Source: a virus
Lineage: Duplodnaviria > Caudoviricetes
IMG/VR virus record: IMGVR_UViG_3300025087_000034
Direction: 5' to 3' (one strand)
Length of the DNA: 64,000 nucleotides
The translations under genes and the position numbers were made by a program. Shown piece after piece: positions 33,121 through 64,000 of this stretch. The notes beneath the pieces are model-generated. The model saw nothing but the letters and a program-made list of their open reading frames with translations. It searched no databases and was not told the DNA's origin. Each line of letters starts with the position of its first letter. Positions within the stretch are counted from its first letter, which is position 1.

Positions 33121-33724
33121 AACATATACACAGGATTGGTTTGATAGGTGTATACCTTCTTGGACAAAATATCTTGATAAATATAAGGGAAAGGAAAACC
33201 TTAGGTTTCTAGAAGTTGGAAGTTATGAGGGGCGTTCCACTTGTTGGTTGTTGGACAATATTCTTACACATTTATCATCTAAAATAAAGTGTTTTGATTT
33301 GTTTGAGGGTTGTTCTTCTCAGGGGGAGTGGTCTAAAGAACTCTACGATAGGTATAATATGAGTGAGGTTTTCAGGAACTTCATTAGTAATGTTTCTTCT
33401 TATGGTGACCGTGTTGAATATAGGGTAGGGGTTTCTCAAGAACTCTTACGTGAACTAGGGCATTCTCCCTTGTTTGATTTTATATATATAGATGGTTCCC
33501 ATATAGCTTGTGACGTTCTTGAAGATTCCGTTCTTGCTTTTAGGCTTCTTAAGCCCAACGGTATAATGATATTGGATGACTATACCTGGGAATTTTTTGA
33601 GGAACCTTTACGCCATCCTAAAATGGGAATAGATGCTTTTCTTACTATTTTTCATGGTCAATTTGATGTGTTGTTAAAAGACAGACAGGTTATATTAAGA
33701 AAGACAGGAATAAAAGAAGAGTAA
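33113..33724 (+). CDS. class I SAM-dependent methyltransferase (Methyltransf_24-like)
   Basis: FLEVGSYEGRS, FDFIYIDGSH, LLKPNGIMILDDY. Its stop codon is supplied by the IscB element end. Confidence 0.88.
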   Translation: MIRTYTQDWFDRCIPSWTKYLDKYKGKENLRFLEVGSYEGRSTCWLLDNILTHLSSKIKCFDLFEGCSSQGEWSKELYDRYNMSEVFRNFISNVSSYGDRVEYRVGVSQELLRELGHSPLFDFIYIDGSHIACDVLEDSVLAFRLLKPNGIMILDDYTWEFFEEPLRHPKMGIDAFLTIFHGQFDVLLKDRQVILRKTGIKEE

Positions 33725-33967
33725 GCAACCCCACGCCTAAGGGCGGGGGCTTTCGAGTCCTTGCTTACTAGGGAACAATTCCAAAAAAGGAGTCGTTAAT
33801 CGTTGAGTAGAAGAAATACATACACACCTACGGATGCTCCTCAAGTTCGTAGCAACTGTGACGCTGAATTAAAAACCCCTAGGGGTAGGGGTGGTGTTCA
33901 GCGTTTAAAAACTCTACCCAACCGTCCCGATGAGGATCTAATCTTAGCTTCGGCTAAGAGACAGAAC
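33700..33967 (+). ncRNA. IscB omega RNA 1 (5' flank-derived guide + scaffold)
   Basis: ~250-nt hairpin-rich leader conserved with 49451-49701, upstream of a PLMP-type iscB. Confidence 0.75.
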
Positions 33968-35217
33968 TTGCGAGTCTCTGTCTATGTCTTAAACCAGCGA
34001 AGTCAGCCATTGATGCCAACAACACCAAGAAAAGCTGAGAAGCTATTGAAGGAGGGAAAGGCTATAGTTGTTAAGCGAGCGCCTTTCACTATTCAGTTGA
34101 CCTATTCTACGGGAGAGAACAAACAGCCCATCAGGCTAGGGGTAGATAGTGGTTTCGTACACGTAGGATTATCAGCAGTTTCAAAGAAACAAGAACTTTA
34201 CTCTGCCGAGGTTCAACTACGAATCGATATAGTGAATTTATTATCGGAACGTAGGTCTTATAGGAGAAATCGTAGAAATAGAAAGACTCGCTATCGTCAA
34301 GCTCGTTTCCTTAATCGAGGTATAAAAAAAGGCTGGCGGGCTCCTTCTATTCAGCACAAATTGGATAGCCATATTAGGTTGGTAAACAAGGTTAAGCAAA
34401 TCTTACCCATTACTGAGGTGGTGGTAGAGGTAGCCTCGTTTGATATTCAGAAGATAAAGAACCCAGAGATAAGTGGTAAACAGTATCAAGAGGGGGAACA
34501 AAAGGACTTTTGGAACACCAGAGAATACATCCTTCATAGAGATGACCATAAGTGCTGCCATTGTAAGGGTAAATCAAAGGACCCCATTCTTAGTGTTCAC
34601 CATTTGGAATCTAGGAAGACTGGTGGTGATAAACCAGCTAATTTGATAACGCTGTGTAAGACGTGCCACGATGATTACCATGGTGGAAAAATTGAATTGA
34701 AAGCGAAACCTTCCAAAGGGTTCAAAGCTGAAGTTTTTATGACAATGGTACGATGGCGCTTAGTAGAACAGTTGCAATGTAGGTACATCTATGGCTATGT
34801 CACCAAACAAGCTAGGGTATTGTTAGGCTTGCCTAAGAGCCATATCAACGACGCATTTGTAATCGTGAGTTCAGGGGCGTGTCCTAGAAGCCAAACCTAC
34901 TTTATTAAGCAGGTTAGAAAGCAAAATCGTAAGCTCTTTAAGGGACTACATAGTGGAATAAGAAACACAGCAACTCGTTATATCCAAGGTTTTCAACGGT
35001 ATGATAAAGTACTATGGAAGGGACAGGAGTGTTTTGTGTTTGGTAGACGAACCACGGGTTACTTTGACCTGAGATTATTAGACGGCACCAAAGTCCATAC
35101 TTCAGCTAAGGCTAAGGACTGTGTTAGACTAGAAAGCGGTAAAACGTTACTAACCCAAATAAGGAGCAGCGCTTCCTCCCCATGGTTAAAACCAAGGGTT
35201 TCCGCGCTGGAGATTCA
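33721..35217 (+). mobile_element. non-autonomous iscB (IS200/IS605 family) element 1
   Basis: Starts GTAAGCAACCCCACGCCTAAGGGCGGGGGC, ends with hairpin ...GGGTTTCCGCGCTGGAGATTCA directly before ATGA. Ends are homologous to element 2. Confidence 0.85.
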
Positions 35218-35221
35218 ATGA
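33968..35221 (+). CDS. iscB: IscB RNA-guided endonuclease 1
   Basis: YVLNQRSQPLMP, LGVDSG (RuvC-I), Arg-rich bridge helix, VVEV, HNH (VHHL..RKTGGD...NLITLCKTCH), SHINDA. Start TTG 33968 is inferred. Confidence 0.93.
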   Translation: MRVSVYVLNQRSQPLMPTTPRKAEKLLKEGKAIVVKRAPFTIQLTYSTGENKQPIRLGVDSGFVHVGLSAVSKKQELYSAEVQLRIDIVNLLSERRSYRRNRRNRKTRYRQARFLNRGIKKGWRAPSIQHKLDSHIRLVNKVKQILPITEVVVEVASFDIQKIKNPEISGKQYQEGEQKDFWNTREYILHRDDHKCCHCKGKSKDPILSVHHLESRKTGGDKPANLITLCKTCHDDYHGGKIELKAKPSKGFKAEVFMTMVRWRLVEQLQCRYIYGYVTKQARVLLGLPKSHINDAFVIVSSGACPRSQTYFIKQVRKQNRKLFKGLHSGIRNTATRYIQGFQRYDKVLWKGQECFVFGRRTTGYFDLRLLDGTKVHTSAKAKDCVRLESGKTLLTQIRSSASSPWLKPRVSALEIQ

Positions 35222-42443: not shown

Positions 42444-44309
42444 ATGAACAAAGAAGAGCTTGAACAATATAGAGCAGAAAAAGGTTTTGCTCTACCGTAC
42501 AAACCCAACTATATATTTATAGATACAGAAGAAGAAGCATTAAAAGCACTAGAACACCTAAAAACATTTGAAGTATTATCTGTAGATACAGAAACTACAG
42601 GTTTATCTCCGTATAATTCAAAACTACTTCTTATACAAATAGCTACACCAGAACTATGCTATATTTTAAACTGTACTAAGGTTGATCCTAAAGTATGGTC
42701 TCCTATTTTTACTGACCTTAATATATTAAAAATCCTACAAAACGCTAAATTCGACTATAAGTTTATAAAGGTATTTTGTGGTGTCTCAATGAGGCCGCTA
42801 TTCGATACTTTTATTGCTGAGGCTTTAATAACTGCTGGTACAAAACAACCGTTAAAATTAAACTTTATTGCTCTAAAATATTTAGGTATAGAAATAAATA
42901 AAGGCGTTAGAACGTCATTTATTGGACAATATAAGACTGATTTTTCTTTGATTGAAAAGTTGTATGCAGCGAATGATGCTTTGATATTGCATAATATCTA
43001 TAATGATCAAGTTGACATTTTAGAGCGTGATGGCTTATTAAATATAGCAATGTTAGAATTTAAGACTATAGTTCCTATAGCTGAGATGGAACTTATTGGC
43101 AGTAGAGTAGATTCTAATAAATGGCGTTTGTTGGTGGAGGTTGCCAGAAAACATATGGGGGAATCGGAGATCAAAGTAAAAGATATTTTGGATCCTGTTT
43201 CTTCGCAACGAGATTTATTTGGTGGTTGCTCTATAAATCTTGGTAGCCCTGCTCAGTTATTGGCCCATTTAACAAGGTTGGGAATAAAGGTCCCTGGCCG
43301 TCAAGGGGTTTTGGAACCGATACAAAATACACAGGAAGAAACGCTTAAACAAATCGCCCATCCAATAGGACCTGCTTTAATAGAGTATCGGGGGTGGGAG
43401 AAAATATGTAACGCTTATGGGGAAAAATTCTTAGAAAAGATAGATGCCAAAACAGGAAGGCTATATGCAGAGTTAAGTCAAATGGGCGCGGGGACAGGAA
43501 GGACGGCTTCTAAAAACCCCAATCTGCAACAAGTTCCAGGGTTTAATCCCGAAGATGAGACTACTTTGGATTTTAGGTCCTGTTTTATAGCTTCTCCGGG
43601 GTACAAACTTGTTGTTGGTGACTACCCACAACAGGAATTACGTATTTTAGCGGAGTTGTCTAAAGATGAAAAGTTTGCTAAGGCGTTTACTTTAGGGGTT
43701 GATCTACACACACGGACAGCCATTGACATTTGGGGTGGAACAGAGGAGGAGGTTAAGCAAAACGGAAATAGAAAAAAGGCAAAATCTATTAATTTTTTAA
43801 TTTCATACGGCGGTCAAGCGTATACGTTAGCAAAAAGATTGGGTATGGACGAAGATGAGGCCCAGAAAATTTTAAATGCCTATTTTTCTACGTATCCTAG
43901 AGTTAAAAAATATATAGAAGAGTATGGGGAAAAGGCTATTAGCAATGGGTATAGTGTTACTTTGGGTGGTAGAAGACGCTATTATGATTTTCCTACTACT
44001 GATGATGAGAAATATGATAGTAAGATGAGAGCGATAAGAAGAAAGGGAGCTAATCATTGCATCCAAGGTACCGCCGCTGATATCGGGAAACAAGCAATTT
44101 GCCATTTCTTTTATGAATTAGAAAAGTTAAATCTAGATGCTCATATCTCGATGTTCATCCATGATGAGATAGTTTGTGAAGCGAAGGTTGAACATGCTAC
44201 TATGGTAGCCAAACTATTGGAGGAATGCATGGTACGAGCCTTTAAAGATTTCTGTAAAAAGATATCAATAACTGTAGAAGCATGTATCGATGATACATGG
44301 AGACACTAG
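42444..44309 (+). CDS. polA: family A DNA polymerase (3'-5' exonuclease + polymerase, no 5'-3' exonuclease)
   Basis: DTETTG, QNAKFD, YAANDA; TGRTASKNPNLQQVP, DYPQQELRILA, KSINF.ISYG, NHCIQGTAAD, IHDEIV. Confidence 0.95.
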   Translation: MNKEELEQYRAEKGFALPYKPNYIFIDTEEEALKALEHLKTFEVLSVDTETTGLSPYNSKLLLIQIATPELCYILNCTKVDPKVWSPIFTDLNILKILQNAKFDYKFIKVFCGVSMRPLFDTFIAEALITAGTKQPLKLNFIALKYLGIEINKGVRTSFIGQYKTDFSLIEKLYAANDALILHNIYNDQVDILERDGLLNIAMLEFKTIVPIAEMELIGSRVDSNKWRLLVEVARKHMGESEIKVKDILDPVSSQRDLFGGCSINLGSPAQLLAHLTRLGIKVPGRQGVLEPIQNTQEETLKQIAHPIGPALIEYRGWEKICNAYGEKFLEKIDAKTGRLYAELSQMGAGTGRTASKNPNLQQVPGFNPEDETTLDFRSCFIASPGYKLVVGDYPQQELRILAELSKDEKFAKAFTLGVDLHTRTAIDIWGGTEEEVKQNGNRKKAKSINFLISYGGQAYTLAKRLGMDEDEAQKILNAYFSTYPRVKKYIEEYGEKAISNGYSVTLGGRRRYYDFPTTDDEKYDSKMRAIRRKGANHCIQGTAADIGKQAICHFFYELEKLNLDAHISMFIHDEIVCEAKVEHATMVAKLLEECMVRAFKDFCKKISITVEACIDDTWRH

Positions 44310-44316
44310 GTTAATA

Positions 44317-44916
44317 ATGTCATCAAGTTATAGTAGTTTGGTAAAGGACATACAAATAGGAAAAATTGAGGGTGAGGACCCCGTGTCTGATTTTATAAGG
44401 AGTGAGTTTGGTATAGATACCATAGTGGCAGGGCATGCCAATAAGGCGTGGGACCTTGAAGTCGTCGGGGTGTATGCCCCTTATGTAGAGGAGAAGCGTA
44501 TACGTAATAAGGACAGGCTTATAAAAAAGTTTGAGTCAAAATTTGGCCATACTTTTGAGATTAAACGGGACATGGTTTCTGACAGGACAGGTAATTTTTT
44601 CTTTGAGGTATTTTCCAATATCCGGGTTAACAATCCAGGGTGTATTGCGGCTTCTAAGGCTGACATGTTAGTTATTGTTACTAGGAAAGAGTTTATATTT
44701 ATAAATAGGGGTTTATTTTTAAGTTGGATTATATCTAATCTTTATTATGATAATGAATTTTCCCGCGGTTGGAAAATGAGAACTTGTAAGAAAGTAAAAG
44801 AAGTCGAACTAAAAAGTTCGCTCATATCACCACAGGTGCGGGGAATATTAATTCCGCTGGACGATATAAAGAAAGAAGCTAGTGTTGGTGTGTTTAAAAG
44901 GGGCGTTATTGTTTAG
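44317..44916 (+). CDS. PD-(D/E)XK-fold nuclease-like protein
   Basis: WDL...FEIKRD...TGNFFFEV...SKADML pattern common in phage nucleases. Confidence 0.55.
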   Translation: MSSSYSSLVKDIQIGKIEGEDPVSDFIRSEFGIDTIVAGHANKAWDLEVVGVYAPYVEEKRIRNKDRLIKKFESKFGHTFEIKRDMVSDRTGNFFFEVFSNIRVNNPGCIAASKADMLVIVTRKEFIFINRGLFLSWIISNLYYDNEFSRGWKMRTCKKVKEVELKSSLISPQVRGILIPLDDIKKEASVGVFKRGVIV

Positions 44917-45801
44917 ATGAGTAGAAAGCGTAATACATTAGAGGAAGTGAGAAAGGTTTTCGAGTCTAGAAGGTATGAGTTACGAAGTGAGGACTATAAA
45001 AATAATAGCACAAAGTTAGACTATAGGTGTCCAAAAGGTCACCTAGGGTCGATGATTTATGGTAGTTTTTATCAAGGAACGAGCTGTCCTATTTGTAACA
45101 TAGAGAACCAAAGGCTCCTTTACAAAGAGGTTGAGAGAGCTTTTGATGCCAGGGGTTATACACTACTTAGTAGGGAGTATAAAAACAACAGTACTAAGTT
45201 AGACTATACGTGCCCAAAAGGTCACCTAGGGTCGATGACCTATGGTAACTTTTATCAAGGAAGGGGCTGTCCTATGTGTAACATAGAGAATCAAAGGCTC
45301 CTTTATGAGGAGGTTGAGAGAGTTTTTGGTGCCAGGGGGTATACATTACTTAGTAAAAAGTATGTGAATGCCCATGCAAAGTTAGATTATAAGTGTCCAA
45401 AAGGTCATTTGGGGTTTATGACTTATAGTCAGTTTCAACAGGGTAATGATTGTCCTATTTGTTCAGAGACTTCCTCTGTTTCTAAAGTGTCACAAAAATG
45501 GTTGGATTGTTTAGGTCTGGCTAAGGAAATGGGAATTAGCAGAGAGGCTAATTTGCAAATAGGGGACCATCGTTTCAAGGTAGATGGTTTCGATTCTAAA
45601 ACAAGCACTGTTTATGAGTTTCTTGGAGATTACTGGCACGGGAATCCAGAAAAGTTTAAGCCACAAGAGTTGAATAAAAGGGCGGGTAGAACCTTTGGCC
45701 AGCTTTATCAAGAAACCCTTGAACGTATTAAGATTTTAGAAGAAGCAGGTTATAAAGTAATTTATATTTGGGAACAGGATTTCTTAAATTCTATAAAATA
45801 A
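44917..45801 (+). CDS. endonuclease with 3 zinc-binding 61-aa repeats and a Vsr/DUF559-like C-terminal domain
   Basis: 3x CPKGH...CPxC; KVDGFD...VYEFLGDYWHGNP...GYKVIYIWE. Confidence 0.8.
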   Translation: MSRKRNTLEEVRKVFESRRYELRSEDYKNNSTKLDYRCPKGHLGSMIYGSFYQGTSCPICNIENQRLLYKEVERAFDARGYTLLSREYKNNSTKLDYTCPKGHLGSMTYGNFYQGRGCPMCNIENQRLLYEEVERVFGARGYTLLSKKYVNAHAKLDYKCPKGHLGFMTYSQFQQGNDCPICSETSSVSKVSQKWLDCLGLAKEMGISREANLQIGDHRFKVDGFDSKTSTVYEFLGDYWHGNPEKFKPQELNKRAGRTFGQLYQETLERIKILEEAGYKVIYIWEQDFLNSIK

Positions 45802-45871: not shown

Positions 45872-48157
45872 ATGGTAATAAGTCGTTTGTGTGACAATTC
45901 TGAAGCCATTCTTCGGGCTCGTTATTATCTTAACGAGAATGAGGACTGGCCGGTTCTCTGTCACAGGGTTACTGACAGTGTAATTCCTATTTCTTGCAGT
46001 AGGTATGATTATACCGAAGAAGAAGTAAGGGAATTAACAAGAAGGATGTTTGAGCATATAAATAATCTTGAGTTTTTGCCAAATTCTCCTACTATGTTTA
46101 ATGCTGGAACTGAGTATCCTATGCTAAGCGCGTGTTTCGTAATAGACGTTCCAGACAATCTGCCCGGTATCTATGAGTCTGTTAAAGAGTCAGCCATGAT
46201 TCATAAAATGGGTGGGGGTGTTGGTTTTTCTTTAAGTAAGCTAAGATGTCGAGGGTCAAAAATTGCTACTACACACGGTAATAGCGGTGGAGCGGTTTCT
46301 TTTCTGAAGGTATTCGCAAATGGCACTGCTGAAATAACGGCGGCGGGTAAGCGTAAAGGGGCCAACATGGCCATGCTTAGAATAGACCATGCAGATATTG
46401 AAGAATTTATAAATTGTAAGTCTGTAGAGGGGGAGTTGGCTAATTTTAATATTTCACTACAATTTACTGACTCTTTTTTATCCGCCTGCTTAAATGACAC
46501 TGAAATTAGTTTGATCGATCCAAAGGATGGGTCGGTAGTGAGAGTTGTGCAAGCTAGGAGTTTGATGAGAAAGGCAGCAGAAGGGGCGTGGAATAATGGC
46601 GAGCCTGGGGCATGTTATATAGATGCAGTAAACAGGGATAACCCCACACCGCACCTGGGGGAAATAAACTCATCAAACCCTTGTGGGGAGTACTATTCTT
46701 CTCCATCTTATAATTCGTGTACATTAGGATCTATAAATCTAACAAGGTATGTTATGGTTAAAAATATCGAAAGTTCGATTGTTTTTGATTGGGAAAAATT
46801 CCGTAAAGATATTTTTGATTATGTTTTTTATTTAGATTGTATCATAGATGCAAATAGTTTTCCTTTAGAGAAAATAAAAGAAGTAACTTGCAAAACCAGA
46901 CCTATAGGTTTGGGTGTTATGGGTTTTGCGGACATTCTTATTATGATGGGTATTAAATATAATTCTGAGGAAGGTCTTTCTTTTGCTCGCGAACTTTCTG
47001 AGAATCTTAGCTACTATTCATTAGTAGCTAGTAAAGAGTTAGCTAAGAAAAGAGGCCATTACGCAGAATTTAGGGTAGAAAATCATGGGTATGAAAAGGC
47101 TAGGGGCTTAGGTGTTCTGGATTGGGAAGCCTTGGTTAAAGAAATAAAAATACATGGACTTAGAAATTCGCATACTGTGGTAATAGCCCCAACTGGTACT
47201 ATTGCCAGGATTGCTAATGAGTGTTCTTTTGGGATAGAGCCCATATTTTCAAAGAGTTTTGAAAGTAATATATTAGATGGAGCTAAGCAAGAAACCAAGA
47301 ATGGTTTGTACCAAAAGTTTTTAGATGGTGAGTTAAAGGTAGGTGAGGACGTCTTTGTTTGTGCTAAGGATATTTCTTGGCAAGACCATATCAAAATGCA
47401 GGCTGAGTGGCAAAAGTTCGTACACAATGGTATAAGTAAGACCATAGGAATGCCTAATAGTGCTACTACCCAGGACGTGTACGCTGCATATATGATGGCG
47501 TATGAACTGGGCCTAAAGGGTATCACGGTGTATAGGGAGGGGAGTAGAAAACAAGAGGTTCTTGTTGAGAAGTCAAAGAAAGAAGAGTGGCATGGGGTGG
47601 GTGATACGTTTGAGCATGCTTCCCCTATAAAACGACCTTTAGAGCTAGAATGCGACATACATCATACACAGGTTGGTGGAGAAAAGTGGGTAGTTCTTGT
47701 AGGGCTCTTAGATGGCAAGCCATATGAAATTTTTGGCGGGCTACAAAAATTCATAGAATTACCTAGGAAATATACTAAGGGCCTGATAGTAAAGAAACCA
47801 AACAAAAAAAGTAGAAGTAAGTATGATTTAATCCTAGATAAAGGAACCCCTGATGAATTAGTTGTTAAAGATATAGTATCTGTATTTGAAAATAAAGAAC
47901 ATGGTGTTGTTGGTAGGTTGATTAGTTTATCTTTGCGTCATCAGGCTCGCCCAAGTTTTCTTTGTGAGCAGTTAATAAAAGATGACGATTTCGATTTTCA
48001 AACGTACAGTAAAGTTATAGCACGTATTTTGAAGAGGTATATAGTAGATGGTGAAAACCCTGAAAGTTCAAAAGTTTGCCCTGAGTGTGGCGGGGAGCTT
48101 TATTATATGGAGGGGTGTGTTTTATGCCATTCGTGTGCATGGTCGAAGTGCTCATAA
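45872..48157 (+). CDS. nrdJ: class II (adenosylcobalamin-dependent) ribonucleotide reductase
   Basis: FLPNSPT..NAG, LSACF, GGVG, NPCGE, SCTLGSINL, RPIGLG, IAPTGT, C-terminal TSCPD and Zn-ribbon; no beta subunit nearby. Confidence 0.92.
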   Translation: MVISRLCDNSEAILRARYYLNENEDWPVLCHRVTDSVIPISCSRYDYTEEEVRELTRRMFEHINNLEFLPNSPTMFNAGTEYPMLSACFVIDVPDNLPGIYESVKESAMIHKMGGGVGFSLSKLRCRGSKIATTHGNSGGAVSFLKVFANGTAEITAAGKRKGANMAMLRIDHADIEEFINCKSVEGELANFNISLQFTDSFLSACLNDTEISLIDPKDGSVVRVVQARSLMRKAAEGAWNNGEPGACYIDAVNRDNPTPHLGEINSSNPCGEYYSSPSYNSCTLGSINLTRYVMVKNIESSIVFDWEKFRKDIFDYVFYLDCIIDANSFPLEKIKEVTCKTRPIGLGVMGFADILIMMGIKYNSEEGLSFARELSENLSYYSLVASKELAKKRGHYAEFRVENHGYEKARGLGVLDWEALVKEIKIHGLRNSHTVVIAPTGTIARIANECSFGIEPIFSKSFESNILDGAKQETKNGLYQKFLDGELKVGEDVFVCAKDISWQDHIKMQAEWQKFVHNGISKTIGMPNSATTQDVYAAYMMAYELGLKGITVYREGSRKQEVLVEKSKKEEWHGVGDTFEHASPIKRPLELECDIHHTQVGGEKWVVLVGLLDGKPYEIFGGLQKFIELPRKYTKGLIVKKPNKKSRSKYDLILDKGTPDELVVKDIVSVFENKEHGVVGRLISLSLRHQARPSFLCEQLIKDDDFDFQTYSKVIARILKRYIVDGENPESSKVCPECGGELYYMEGCVLCHSCAWSKCS

Positions 48158-48158
48158 T

Positions 48159-48251
48159 GTTTATGAAACTTTTAAACGTTTTGACCTTATAAAAGAGGCC
48201 GGTTATAATTTGGTGTATATTTGGGAATATGACTTTTTAAACTTACTATAA
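48159..48251 (+). pseudogene. C-terminal remnant of a Zn-repeat/Vsr-type endonuclease
   Basis: YETFKRFDLIKEAGYNLVYIWEYDFLN matches YQETLERIKILEEAGYKVIYIWEQDFLN of 44917-45801. Confidence 0.7.
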
Positions 48252-48819: not shown

Positions 48820-49470
48820 ATGTTTGATATAGAAGAAACACTACGGGATTCAGGAATTAATTTAATCTTAGGTGTGGATGAGGTAGGTAGGGGTGCTTTA
48901 ATATCTGATGTTGTTGTTTCATGTGTAATTTTGCCGGCGGGCCATAAAATAGAAGGTATAAAAGACTCAAAAAAATTTACAGGTCCTAAAGCGCATGAAA
49001 ATAGAATAAAGATATCAAAATTAATACATGAAAGAGCTTTGGAAGTTCATATAATTTCTGCACCAGCAGAAGTTATAGATAAAATAAATATATTAGAAGC
49101 AACAAAACTGTGTATAATAACAGCTATATCAAAATGTAAAATAAAACCAGGTATGGTTATAATAGATGGTGATATGGAATTTGAAGATGGTGAAATTATG
49201 TATCCATATATGTGTGTAGAAAAGGCGGACTCTAGGAGTGAAAACGTAGCGGCTGCCTCTATTGTAGCTAAGGTACACAGAGATAATCATATGTTATTGT
49301 TGGATAAAGTTTATCCACAATATGGTTTAGCACAGCACAAAGGCTATGGAACAAAAGAGCATATGGAGGCCATATTAAAATATGGTCCTTGTGAACTTCA
49401 TAGGAAGTCTTTTAGTGTAAAAGGAAGAAAAATAGGGAGTATTAAACCTAGTAAGCAGCCCCACGCCTAA
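48820..49470 (+). CDS. rnhB: ribonuclease HII
   Basis: GVDEVGRG, IKDSK, IIDG, KADS...VAAASIVAKVHRD, HKGYGT..H, HRKSF. Last 6 codons lie in the IscB element 2 end. Confidence 0.93.
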   Translation: MFDIEETLRDSGINLILGVDEVGRGALISDVVVSCVILPAGHKIEGIKDSKKFTGPKAHENRIKISKLIHERALEVHIISAPAEVIDKINILEATKLCIITAISKCKIKPGMVIIDGDMEFEDGEIMYPYMCVEKADSRSENVAAASIVAKVHRDNHMLLLDKVYPQYGLAQHKGYGTKEHMEAILKYGPCELHRKSFSVKGRKIGSIKPSKQPHA

Positions 49471-49701
49471 AGGTGGGGGCTTTTAGGAGCCCTTACTTAC
49501 TAGGGAGCGATCCCAGAAAGGAGTCGTTAATCGTTGAGTAGAAGAGATACATACACACCTACGAATGCTCCTCAAGTTCATAGCAACTGTGGCGCTGAAT
49601 TAAAAACCCCTAGGGGTAGGGGTGGTGTTCAGCGTTTAAAAACTCTACCCAACAATCCCGATGAGGACCTAACCCGTGGACAGGGGGTACATTTAACATT
49701 A
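49430..49701 (+). ncRNA. IscB omega RNA 2
   Basis: Homologous to 33721-33967. Confidence 0.75.
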
Positions 49702-50936
49702 GTGTACGTACTGAACAATCGTGGTGAGCCGTTGATGCCTTGTAGTCCAAAGAAAGCCAAAGCATTGCTAAAGGAGGGAAAAGCCAAGGTAAGGACTAGA
49801 ACACCTTTTACGATACAATTGCTTTATGGTAGCTCAGGTTACAAACAACCTATTAGGTTGGGAGTAGACAGTGGTTTTAAGCACGTAGGACTATCTGCTG
49901 TTTCTGACAAGCAGGAACTTTACTCTGTTGAAGTCCAGCTTAGAATCGACATAGTGAATTTATTATCGGAACGTAGGTCTTATAGGAGAAATCGTAGAAA
50001 TAGAAAGACTCGCTATCGTCAAGCTCGTTTCCTTAATCGAGGAATAAAAAAAGGCTGGCTAGCCCCCAGTATTCAACACAAACTAGATAGCCATGTTAGG
50101 TTAGTAAACAAGGTTAAGCAAATCTTACCCGTTATTGAGGTGGTGGTAGAGGTAGCCTTGTTTGATATTCAGAAGATAAAGAATCCAGAGACGGGTGGTA
50201 AACAGTACCAAGAAGGGGAACAAAAGGGTTTTTGGAACACCAGAGAATACATACTCCACAGGGACAACCACAAGTGTTGCCACTGTAAGGGTAAATCAAA
50301 CGACACTGTTCTTAATGTTCACCATTTGGAGTCTAGAAAAATTGGTGGCGATAGACCGGAGAATTTAATAACACTTTGTAAGACGTGTCATGATACTTAT
50401 CATAATGGAGGGATTAAATTGAAAGCAAAGCCTTCTAAAGGGTTCAAAGCTGAAACTTTTATGACAATGGTACGATGGCGTTTAGTAGAACAATTGAGCT
50501 GCAGCTACACTTATGGTTACGTTACCAAGCATAATAGAACCTTGATAGGACTACCCAAGAGTCACGCAAACGATGCATTTGTAATCGCGAGCAAAATAGA
50601 CCGACCTAGATGTCAGTCTTATCAGATCAAACAAGTTAGGAAGCAAAATCGTAAGCTGTTCAAAGGACCACATAGTGGAGTAAGAAACACAGCCGCTAGA
50701 TATATTCAAGGTTTTCAACGGTACGATAAAGTAAAGTGGAAATCTCAGGAGTGTTTTGTGTTTGGGCGAAGGACTAGGGGTACTTTTGATCTAAGGCTAC
50801 TAGATAGGACTAAACTTTGTGGTGATGCTAAAGCTAAAGACTGTGTTAGGCTAGAAAGCGGTAGAACGTTCTTAACTCAAAGGAGCAGCGTTTCTTCCCC
50901 GGGGCTAAAGCTCGGGGTACCCGCGCTGAAGATTTG
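49451..50936 (+). mobile_element. non-autonomous iscB element 2
   Basis: Starts GTAAGCAGCCCCACGCCTAAAGGTGGGGGC, ends ...GGGGTACCCGCGCTGAAGATTTG directly before ATGG. Confidence 0.85.
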
Positions 50937-50937
50937 A
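49702..50937 (+). CDS. iscB: IscB RNA-guided endonuclease 2
   Basis: VYVLNNRGEPLMP, LGVDSG, bridge helix, HNH, SHANDA. Start GTG 49702 is inferred. Confidence 0.93.
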   Translation: MYVLNNRGEPLMPCSPKKAKALLKEGKAKVRTRTPFTIQLLYGSSGYKQPIRLGVDSGFKHVGLSAVSDKQELYSVEVQLRIDIVNLLSERRSYRRNRRNRKTRYRQARFLNRGIKKGWLAPSIQHKLDSHVRLVNKVKQILPVIEVVVEVALFDIQKIKNPETGGKQYQEGEQKGFWNTREYILHRDNHKCCHCKGKSNDTVLNVHHLESRKIGGDRPENLITLCKTCHDTYHNGGIKLKAKPSKGFKAETFMTMVRWRLVEQLSCSYTYGYVTKHNRTLIGLPKSHANDAFVIASKIDRPRCQSYQIKQVRKQNRKLFKGPHSGVRNTAARYIQGFQRYDKVKWKSQECFVFGRRTRGTFDLRLLDRTKLCGDAKAKDCVRLESGRTFLTQRSSVSSPGLKLGVPALKI

Positions 50938-58960: not shown

Positions 58961-58992
58961 TGTTTATGTTTTTGACTAGTTGAGGTTTGGAT

Positions 58993-60249
58993 ATGTTAAA
59001 AAAGTTTTTCTATGAAAATGTTAAACAAGTTTTTAAGGATAGGGGTTATACACTAATTAGCAAAGAGTATATAAATAGTCGTACAAAGTTGGGCTATGAA
59101 TGCCCGAAAGGCCATTTAGGATCTATGACTTATAGTCATTTTCAACAGGGAAGTAGTTGCCCTGTTTGTTCTATTGAGAATAGCAAGCTTTCCTATGAAG
59201 AAGTTAAGAGGGCCTTTGATGATAGGAGCTATACGTTACTTAGTAAAGAGTATACAAATAAAACTATTAAGTTAGACTATGAGTGCCCAAAAGGTCACTT
59301 GGGGTCTATGACTTATGGTAATTTTCAACAGGGAAATAGTTGCCCTGTTTGTTCTATTGAGAATAGCAAGCTTTCTTACGACGATGTTAAGAAAGTTTTT
59401 AGAGATAGGGGCTATATCTTACGCAGTAAGGAGTATGTAAATAGCCAAACTAAATTAGACTATGAGTGCCCAAAAGGTCACTTGGGGTCTATGACTTATG
59501 GTAATTTTTATCAGAAACACGCCTGCCTTGTTTGTTTTATTGAGAATAGCAGGCTTTCCTATGAAGAAGTTAAGAGGGCCTTTGATGATAGAGGTTATAC
59601 ACTACTTAGTAAAGAGTATGTGAATGTCCAAACTAAGTTAGACTATATATGCCCAAAAGGTCACCTAGGATCGATGACCTATGGTAACTTTCATCAAGGA
59701 AAGGGCTGCCCTATTTGTAACATAGAGAATAGCAAGCTTTCCTATGAAGAAGTTAAGAGAGCCTTTGACGGTAGAGGTTATACCTTGCTTAGCAAGGAGT
59801 ATGTAAATGCTGGCGCTAAGTTAGACTATAGGTGCCCTAAGGGTCATTTGGGGTCTATGATTTATAGTCATTTTCAACAGGGAAGTGACTGTCCTATTTG
59901 TTCAGATAGCTCTCCTGTTTCTAAAATTTCCCAAAAATGGCTAGCTTCCTTAGGGCTATCGTCGGAGATGGGAATTAGTAGGGAAGTTAGTTTGAAAATA
60001 GGGGATAACAGGTTTAAGGTAGATGGTTTTGATCTTTCAACAAATACAGTTTATGAGTTTCTTGGGGACTATTGGCATGGGAACCCTAGTGTATTTGATC
60101 CTAATGAAGTGAACAAAAATAATAAAAAGACTTTTGGCCGGCTTTACCAAGAAACCTTGGAAAGAATTCACCTCTTAGAAGAAGCAGAGTACAATGTGGT
60201 TTATATTTGGGAGAAAGATTTTTTAGAAGGAAAGGGGTGTTGTAGTTAA
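58993..60249 (+). CDS. endonuclease with 5 zinc-binding 61-aa repeats and a Vsr/DUF559-like C-terminal domain
   Basis: 5x CPKGH...CxxC; KVDGFD...YEFLGDYWHGNP; paralog of 44917-45801. Confidence 0.8.
   Translation: MLKKFFYENVKQVFKDRGYTLISKEYINSRTKLGYECPKGHLGSMTYSHFQQGSSCPVCSIENSKLSYEEVKRAFDDRSYTLLSKEYTNKTIKLDYECPKGHLGSMTYGNFQQGNSCPVCSIENSKLSYDDVKKVFRDRGYILRSKEYVNSQTKLDYECPKGHLGSMTYGNFYQKHACLVCFIENSRLSYEEVKRAFDDRGYTLLSKEYVNVQTKLDYICPKGHLGSMTYGNFHQGKGCPICNIENSKLSYEEVKRAFDGRGYTLLSKEYVNAGAKLDYRCPKGHLGSMIYSHFQQGSDCPICSDSSPVSKISQKWLASLGLSSEMGISREVSLKIGDNRFKVDGFDLSTNTVYEFLGDYWHGNPSVFDPNEVNKNNKKTFGRLYQETLERIHLLEEAEYNVVYIWEKDFLEGKGCCS
59005..59915 (+). repeat. five 183-bp coding tandem repeats
   Basis: Recurrent tgcccaaaaggtca(c/t)...atgac(t/c)tat units; three homologous units at ~44935-45475. 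Confidence 0.85.
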
Positions 60250-63644: not shown

Positions 63645-64000
63645 ATGGCAGTAAAAAATATAAGTAAAAACCACTTAATATTTGAAGTATTTCCTTGGCT
63701 TAGGAAATGGGTAGACTGGGAAGCCAACAAAGAGGGGCTAGAAGACCTATCGTGTAGAAGTAAATACAGAATTTCTTTAAGATGCCCTGTGTGTGGCTAC
63801 AGACTTAAATATACAGTGTCAATGCTGAAAGAGTTGGTCCATAATTTAGAGTGTAGACGATGTAATAGTTTAGGTATAAAAAGGCCAGACCTTCTTAAAT
63901 ATTGGGATTATAAAGCTAATATGTTAGACCCTTTTATAATTTCTCCTGGGTCTCATAAGACGGCTAATTGGAAATGTGAAAAATGTGGGTACAGTTGGAC
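63645..64000 (+). CDS. zinc-ribbon repeat protein (DUF4379-like), partial
   Basis: ATG 63645; RCPVCGY...CRRC...PDLLKYWDYKAN..P..I.PGS...NWKCEKCGYSW, open to the window end. Confidence 0.7.
   Translation, partial: MAVKNISKNHLIFEVFPWLRKWVDWEANKEGLEDLSCRSKYRISLRCPVCGYRLKYTVSMLKELVHNLECRRCNSLGIKRPDLLKYWDYKANMLDPFIISPGSHKTANWKCEKCGYSW

Follow-up and report, generated by a model that had tools for sequence, protein, structure and literature searches.

The window, which is the whole stretch of 64,000 nucleotides that was analysed, encodes on its + strand two paralogous proteins, HEG-A and HEG-B, in which a string of zinc modules is followed by a Vsr-like nuclease domain. Both are members of a published and very common class, and the array design is already known. 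It is highly probable that they are free-standing homing endonucleases of this 'CapR-like array + EDxHD/Vsr-like nuclease' class and that they act as proposed below. The source is an uncultured jumbo phage that has expanded this family of homing-endonuclease genes (HEGs). HEG-A and HEG-B are useful mainly for annotation, as a further example of a large, already described class. What is added here consists of candidate DNA-reading columns identified across the family, a 5-module and a 4-module allele of HEG-B, a mosaic between HEG-A and its paralog P0003, and a HEG fossil at the side of the ribonucleotide reductase gene.

HEG loci, array layout and paralogs

The neighbours of HEG-A are a 208-aa ORF, located after the DNA polymerase gene, and the gene for a 761-aa ribonucleotide reductase; HEG-B is flanked by a 327-aa ORF and a GNAT-like ORF (Table 1). 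The 208-aa ORF (44290-44916, + strand) lies directly upstream of HEG-A, its stop codon abutting the HEG-A start codon; it has no Pfam family, and only five non-identical homologs (58-62% identical) were found among 5.8 billion proteins. For HEG-B, the ATG at 58993 that the initial annotation had used is most likely the correct start, and an alternative TTG exists upstream at 58987. No group I or group II intron RNA was detected around HEG-A and HEG-B in the window, and the two are therefore free-standing genes.

A third intact homing-endonuclease gene, HEG-C, is found just after the Clp ATPase gene. Its product has five DUF4379 modules (2.2e-58) of the W..C..C type and a nuclease of the HEG-A/B type, which is 46-48% identical to the nucleases of HEG-A and HEG-B over the aligned domain. 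A fourth HEG is present as a fossil that overlaps and extends past the 3' end of the reductase gene, so that this gene is preceded by a live HEG and followed by a dead one. The DNA polymerase, reductase and Clp genes have HEGs packed closely beside them, and a stretch of 19 kb contains three intact HEGs and one fossil.

Table 1. Positions of the HEGs, their modules and domains, and the IscB-like elements in the window
Feature	Position	Strand	Description	Evidence
HEG-A	44917-45801	+	294 aa; 3 CapR-like zinc modules + Vsr-like nuclease	ORF, Pfam, PHROG, AF2
HEG-A array	44935-45483	+	three 61-aa modules: A1 44935-45117, A2 45118-45300, A3 45301-45483	
HEG-A nuclease domain	45475-45798	+	residues 187-294; Vsr-like PD-(D/E)XK fold	
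HEG fossil (fourth HEG)	48141-48251	+	36-aa remnant of nuclease C-terminus; nuclease positions 73-108	E 3.3e-7, 51% identical
HEG-B	58993-60249	+	418 aa; 5 modules + nuclease as in HEG-A	
HEG-B array	59008-59922	+	five 61-aa modules (span)	
HEG-B modules	B1 59008-59190, B2 59191-59373, B3 59374-59556, B4 59557-59739, B5 59740-59922	+		
Exact in-register run, 54 nt	B2 59272-59325, B3 59455-59508	+	longest among all repeat pairs	
HEG-B nuclease domain	59923-60246	+		E 1.1e-51, 72% identical to HEG-A domain
HEG-C, 5' part	63645-64000	+	461 aa, continues beyond window end; complete in L001:998-2383	
IscB-like element 1	49451-50937	+	HEARO RNA at 49451-49673	RF02033
IscB-like element 2	33721-35221	+	HEARO RNA at 33721-33942	RF02033

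Two IscB-like elements are also present in the window. Their HEARO RNAs scored 116 bits (element 1) and 114 bits (element 2) with Rfam RF02033, for which the gathering score is 83, and an ORF of about 415-472 aa lies after each RNA. The ORF of element 1 (49690-50934) matches Pfam RRXRR (1.6e-65) and HNH (2.7e-6) and has a PLMP motif, and the ORF of element 2 (33803-35221) is closely similar to it by eye. Judged from these matches, the two elements look like RNA-guided OMEGA-type nucleases in a jumbo phage. Upstream of element 1, at a distance of about 1.3 kb, are the reductase gene and the HEG fossil.

When the repeats were anchored on CPKGH, eight in-register units were found, three in HEG-A and five in HEG-B, each exactly 61 aa (183 nt) long, in agreement with the initial annotation. 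Among the eight units, 21 of the 61 columns are invariant. These include C32, H36, C51 and C54, which make up the zinc-ligand set C-x3-H...C-x2-C and are conserved in 100, 94, 99 and 99%, respectively, of about 600 family repeats. Whole repeats are 57-81% identical at the DNA level and 51-82% identical at the protein level, and synonymous sites between repeats are near saturation (pS 0.3-0.8, mostly 0.4-0.8, with the lowest at 0.30). The near-identical DNA that had been described between the two loci was observed for the patch cited (45210-45290 versus 59650-59730; 75 of 81 nt identical at a 1-nt offset), but the description does not extend to whole repeats, and the longest exact word common to the HEG-A and HEG-B genes is 21 nt. 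Among pairs of identical residues, codon identity is 0.68 in the core and 0.63-0.73 in the flanks. Because the same codons are used to a similar extent in both, the patch is explained without recent exchange between the loci and reflects conserved residues together with biased codon use; recent gene conversion between HEG-A and HEG-B was rejected as a needed explanation. Counted from the C-terminal end, the two arrays are colinear (A3 with B5, 78% nt identity; A2 with B4, 81%), and one-to-one orthologous repeats between the paralogs were not found, the last module excepted. The HEG-A and HEG-B nuclease domains have 71-72% amino acid identity.

By exact-sequence look-up, at least seven paralogs are on record (HEG-A, HEG-B, HEG-C, P0003, P0006, P0032 and P0264). 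Each of the seven occurs on 12-14 contigs, the longest of which is 258,514 bp in every case, and most simply they belong to one phage genome. Six of the paralogs carry 23 CapR modules, and all 23 differ from one another at columns 24/25/44/49. HEG-A and P0003 are identical at 57 of 58 positions in the N-terminal half of the nuclease, whereas their repeats are only 51-62% identical, which indicates that the nuclease has not had the same history as the array.

The number of modules also varies. P0262, encoded on a 2.4-kb ENA contig, is HEG-B minus exactly 61 aa in frame and is otherwise identical to HEG-B. It has a chimeric module in which the front of B2 is fused to the back of B3, with the spot at columns 24-26 coming from B2 and the spots at columns 43-50 coming from B3. 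The deletion junction falls inside the 54-nt exact run that B2 and B3 have in common, and the loss of one repeat is the result of either unequal recombination or assembly collapse at this run. The repeat shuffling suggested by the initial annotation is thus seen in P0262 as a module number altered by recombination, subject to the possibility of assembly collapse. In another ENA contig, of 2.3 kb, a frameshift where module 3 begins divides HEG-A into two (P0260 + P0259), and on a 77.9-kb contig the HEG-A gene call is shortened at the N-terminus and starts at Met107 (P0258). These records may represent decaying alleles or sequencing errors.

Family membership and folds of the module and nuclease

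The Pfam CapR homology domain (PF21817; cut-off 24.2 bits) scored 51.4 bits (1.3e-13) in HEG-A and 77.3 bits (1.1e-21) in HEG-B, and DUF4379, described as a 'probable treble clef zinc finger', scored 26.5 bits (7.3e-6) and 37.7 bits, respectively. PHROGs places both proteins in endonuclease families (PHROG 559/681). The exact 61-aa period together with the CapR and DUF4379 scores corresponds to the array of the class described in PMC12350094, and the C-terminal domain of about 100 aa with a Vsr-like fold corresponds to its nuclease. The four ligands and two knuckles of PF21817 are also present, the first knuckle being C-x3-H versus CxxC in the PLE CapR protein.

A tblastn search against deposited phages matched 349 records, with 26-32% identity across almost the entire length. 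The matches included Hef-like homing endonucleases of Campylobacter phages and of AR9/PBS1, as well as endonucleases of T5-like phages, and the relatives annotated as 'Hef-like' are 26-28% identical to HEG-A and HEG-B. In an exhaustive profile-free search, the family comprised 18,907 protein clusters (clustered at 50% identity) at E <= 0.001 and 1,293 clusters at E <= 1e-30. In 120 close homologs, the number of units per array is between 3 and 9 and the period is 60, 61 or 65 aa. C-terminal nucleases of at least four kinds occur fused to the CapR-like array, namely the Vsr-like type of HEG-A, other Vsr-like types, HNH and EYDG. At the nucleotide level, a megablast of 10 kb of the window gave no match to deposited phages. 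The search for syntenic relatives yielded none with the DNA polymerase as query and only distant loci with P0032, and a metagenome scan with P0003 yielded 80 loci that are at most 49% identical over most of the protein, the 258,514-bp contig not being among them. Among the relatives from these DNA polymerase, P0032 and P0003 searches, neither a HEG-less allele nor a target site was found.

The model of a single module (pLDDT 89.6) has helix 1 at columns 2-11, strands at columns 14-16, 27-31 and 37-41, a short helix at columns 42-46 and then a helix that begins from the CxxC (columns 52-59). Columns 15-31, 31-37 and 29-39 co-vary among 1,048 non-redundant modules, which gives independent support for the predicted three-stranded sheet. 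Searches with Foldseek and VIA-align revealed no convincing solved relative of the module, the best match being 6sga_Fd (Z 5.0), an assembly factor of the Trypanosoma mitoribosome, and none that binds DNA or is solved bound to it. The candidate DNA-facing side is therefore suggested from composition. At column 50, which precedes the second zinc knuckle, K, R or H is found in 60% of the 1,113 modules of the family; among the closest ~600, 77% have R. In all eight repeats of the window this column is S, G, D or A (e.g. at 45082-45084 and 59155-59157). Only a few modules of the other paralogs of this phage retain R or K there.

In the AlphaFold2 model of HEG-A (mean pLDDT 88), the domains are each confident and their relative orientation is not (pTM 0.50). 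As the initial annotation had stated, each array is fused to a Vsr-like nuclease, with a domain of ~108 aa following the last module. When the predicted structure of HEG-A residues 187-294 was compared with solved structures using VIA-align, matches were obtained to Vsr (1cw0_A; Z 8.1, rmsd 3.1, 99 residues aligned; Foldseek probability 0.96) and to the catalytic domain of I-Bth0305I (3r3p_B; Z 6.3, rmsd 4.2, 83 aligned), and also to RAP domains (Z 7.0-8.7) and the DUF559 protein 3hrl_A (Z 6.1). Searches of the PDB by sequence, with the single protein and with a profile, gave no significant match to any chain, and there was no Pfam Vsr match. An alignment of 23 homologs shows no variation at D223, E234, H241 and E286 and almost none at E210; in the sequences inspected, HEG-A position 251 is occupied by an acidic residue. 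With this acidic residue, the conserved positions may form an E-D-x-H-D-like series, and they are candidate catalytic residues. All family-invariant nuclease residues are present in both HEG-A and HEG-B.

Vsr proper is a stand-alone T:G mismatch nickase that is paired with a cytosine methyltransferase. The proteins described here are fused to arrays, occur in multiple copies and are located between phage replication genes, and their identification as the Vsr mismatch-repair endonuclease proper was rejected.

For both the module and the nuclease, the best structural neighbours are proteins, from protists and animals, of the mitochondrial ribosome or RNA metabolism. For the module these are 6sga_Fd, 6hiv_DS and 6yxx_E2, the last of which aligns at low Z both to the module region and to a single module; for the nuclease they are the RAP domains of 9g6k_Li (Z 8.7), 6z1p_AS and FASTKD4. 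Based on these model comparisons, the whole HEG architecture may possibly have common ancestry with mitochondrial proteins.

Variable columns of the zinc modules

Among the eight repeats of the window, variability is highest at columns 25 and 49 (2.5 bits), followed by columns 24, 31, 10 and 50 and then by columns 1, 11, 22 and 44, and ten columns have an entropy of at least 1.75 bits. The initial annotation had assigned the variation to two fixed spots. Variation at columns 24-26 (after Y-x-N) and 43-46 is real, but it is not confined to these spots, as columns 49-50, 31, 22, 10-11 and 1 are equally or more variable.

To describe the pattern across the family, residue sharing in pairs of modules within the same array was compared with that in pairs between arrays, using 235 arrays with 1,113 modules. 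Columns 24, 25, 41, 43, 44, 47 and 49 showed no array memory (excess +0.01 to +0.05), and the same was observed for the linker columns 55 and 57-59 (+0.01 to +0.05). Residue identity at all of these columns is very low (0.12-0.21). A strong array signature (+0.33 to +0.42) was observed at the scaffold columns 9, 14, 30, 38, 42, 45 and 50. Acidic residues make up 5% at columns 24, 25, 43, 44, 47 and 49, compared with 41% on the exposed face of helix 1 and 19% on the face of the sheet, and K/R/H/N/Q/S/T account for 72% at the same six columns. The hot-column pairs 24-25, 25-43, 41-44 and 44-49 co-vary (z 8-10; 1,048 non-redundant modules). The per-site comparison that the initial annotation had called for therefore places its hot spots in a class that is without array memory, poor in acidic residues and co-varying, although column variability across the 235 arrays is a continuum with no sharp class.

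The other comparison called for, that of dN/dS, gave weak evidence at the codon level. Pooled dN/dS is 0.58 at the hot columns, which were picked after the fact, and 0.16 elsewhere. The ratio of pN to pooled pS exceeds 1 only at columns 22, 24 and 25 (1.6-2.1), and this in the nine least-diverged within-array pairs (9 of 105, with pS < 0.55), which are few, related and not independent, most of them probably coming from this window. Since synonymous sites are saturated, no firm sign of positive selection is obtainable.

In terms of a recognition surface, the hot columns have the appearance expected of a nucleic-acid-reading surface, which is indirect evidence, and such a surface would be nearer to that of a zinc-finger array than to that of a TALE. 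TALE-like logic, as invoked by the initial annotation, needs near-identical repeats that differ at about one di-residue, and it does not apply to repeats that are 51-82% identical and vary at ten or more columns. A looser recognition, similar to that of zinc-finger arrays, is possible. No recurring set of residue combinations was found at the hot columns, and no published proposal or test of a residue-level code for these modules was found in the literature. It is doubtful that the modules carry a decipherable code, in which columns 24/25, 43/44/47 and 49 would set each sub-site. If they did, the arrays of 3-10 modules that occur in nature would amount to programmable nucleases, with module recombination as the means of retargeting, and the HEG-B variant with four modules in place of five would suggest that targets evolve by such recombination.

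Proposed mode of action and comparison with known systems

For HEG-A and HEG-B, we infer DNA binding by the modules, the face that contacts DNA, cleavage and homing as follows. The N-terminal string of 61-aa treble-clef-like zinc modules would bind a long DNA target, and the contact of each module, probably with a few base pairs, would be made by a surface that is poor in acidic residues and evolves fast. It would comprise columns 22-26, in the loop that precedes strand 2, columns 41-47, where strand 3 ends and the short helix follows, and column 49. The conserved N23, K27 and K/R60 would hold the DNA backbone, as would R50, which most of the family has. The C-terminal Vsr-like domain would then cut near the bound site. 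During co-infection, a related genome that is without the HEG would be cut and repaired from the HEG-bearing genome, and the gene would spread together with flanking markers. The arrays probably evolve by substitution at the surface columns and by unequal recombination in the conserved repeat core, as from five to four modules, and further by exchange between arrays and nuclease domains.

Sequence-specific DNA binding by this domain has been shown only for CapR of PLE, which requires its conserved cysteines, the zinc ligands, to bind DNA (PMC8096241), and CapR domains are needed for the Acr activity of the CasPR anti-CRISPR repressors (2026 preprint 10.64898/2026.02.23.707548). CapR-domain proteins with such roles therefore exist, and HEG-A and HEG-B might likewise be domesticated DNA-binding silencers of host or rival genes, with no role as nucleases. 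This is very improbable, as the PLE CapR protein and the CasPRs are without a nuclease domain, whereas the Vsr-like domain of HEG-A and HEG-B is intact, and as the paralog expansion, the fossil copy and the frameshifted allele are in keeping with a selfish nuclease and its life cycle. A larger, though still minor, possibility is that the array binds DNA mainly by backbone and shape with little specificity per module, and that the variable columns are unconstrained surface loops that drift fast, so that module differences would convey little information. The linker columns 55 and 57-59, which behave like the proposed hot spots in having no array memory, and the synonymous saturation, which leaves no firm signal of positive selection, are both compatible with drift. 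The composition of the hot columns (5% acidic, 72% K/R/H/N/Q/S/T) is unlike that of other exposed variable columns, however, and these columns co-vary with one another; neutral loops are unlikely to avoid D/E so consistently.

At the other extreme, each 61-aa module would read a fixed sub-site, determined by a handful of residues, independently of its context, and module swaps would retarget the enzyme predictably. The exact 61-aa period with a conserved linker is consistent with such a strong code, as are the 23 modules of the six CapR paralogs that all differ at columns 24/25/44/49, the randomised, polar or basic and co-varying character of these columns within arrays, the nine within-array pairs that have diverged least, with their pN/pS of 1.6-2.1 at columns 22, 24 and 25, and the natural chimera P0262, which joins the 24-26 spot of one module to the 43-50 spots of the next. 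A strong code is nevertheless unlikely. The repeats are 51-82% identical, with ten or more variable columns on a continuum of variability, residue combinations do not recur, and pooled dN/dS is 0.58 even at hot columns that were themselves chosen after the fact. In addition, the sole studied Vsr-type homing enzyme has a specificity that is spread evenly and loosely over its site (PMC3239194). Homing endonucleases of the CapR-like array class are the preferred interpretation of HEG-A and HEG-B, and looser, zinc-finger-array-like recognition by their modules is possible.

The family-wide column statistics name specific positions to mutate. A natural test set is also provided by the six CapR-array paralogs, which present 23 distinct modules on one scaffold, and by the 5- and 4-module alleles of HEG-B. 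Were the modules to prove additive in their specificity, designed DNA binding would gain a new scaffold in this family.

Like HEG-A and HEG-B, C2H2 and TALE arrays consist of fixed-length tandem modules with a conserved scaffold and a subset of polar positions that change fast. The C2H2 and TALE folds are unrelated to CapR-type modules, however, and the HEG-A and HEG-B modules are far less uniform than TALE repeats. With respect to the nuclease, PMC3239194 defines the Vsr-like EDxHD homing family and places the Hef-type phage enzymes in it; Hef of phage U5 cuts nrdB (PMC2988022). The I-Bth0305I/Hef family has in common with HEG-A and HEG-B the Vsr-like catalytic fold and the association with ribonucleotide reductase genes, and differs in that I-Bth0305I uses NUMOD/HTH DNA-binding regions in place of zinc modules.

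Phage homing endonucleases commonly bear repeated CapR/DUF723/DUF4379 zinc-finger DNA-binding domains, as reported in 2023 (PMC10448857), where it was argued that this modularity would speed target diversification and where in-frame loss of repeats by recombination was documented. The T5orf172 (GIY-YIG-like) enzymes of ICP1 and other phages described there have repeated zinc modules as in HEG-A and HEG-B, and also resemble them in repeat loss by recombination, in domain shuffling among paralogs and in clustering beside essential genes. The catalytic domain is different, being T5orf172 in those enzymes and Vsr-like PD-(D/E)XK in HEG-A and HEG-B. The general idea of the initial annotation, that shuffling of modular arrays retargets phage homing nucleases, is reasonable and is already found in PMC10448857 and PMC12350094, while its strong TALE-like form is unsupported.

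The 2025 study (PMC12350094) described enzymes with 3-5 CapR-like domains followed by a nuclease domain of about 100 aa related to EDxHD/Vsr, and reported thousands of unannotated relatives. HEG-A and HEG-B are similar to these enzymes in the order of the domains, the size and number of the modules, the type of nuclease and the phage setting. In contrast to the published examples, which lie inside group I or group II introns, HEG-A and HEG-B are free-standing between genes, and their lineage has C-x3-H...C-x2-C ligands and is without the arginine that precedes the second knuckle in the family.
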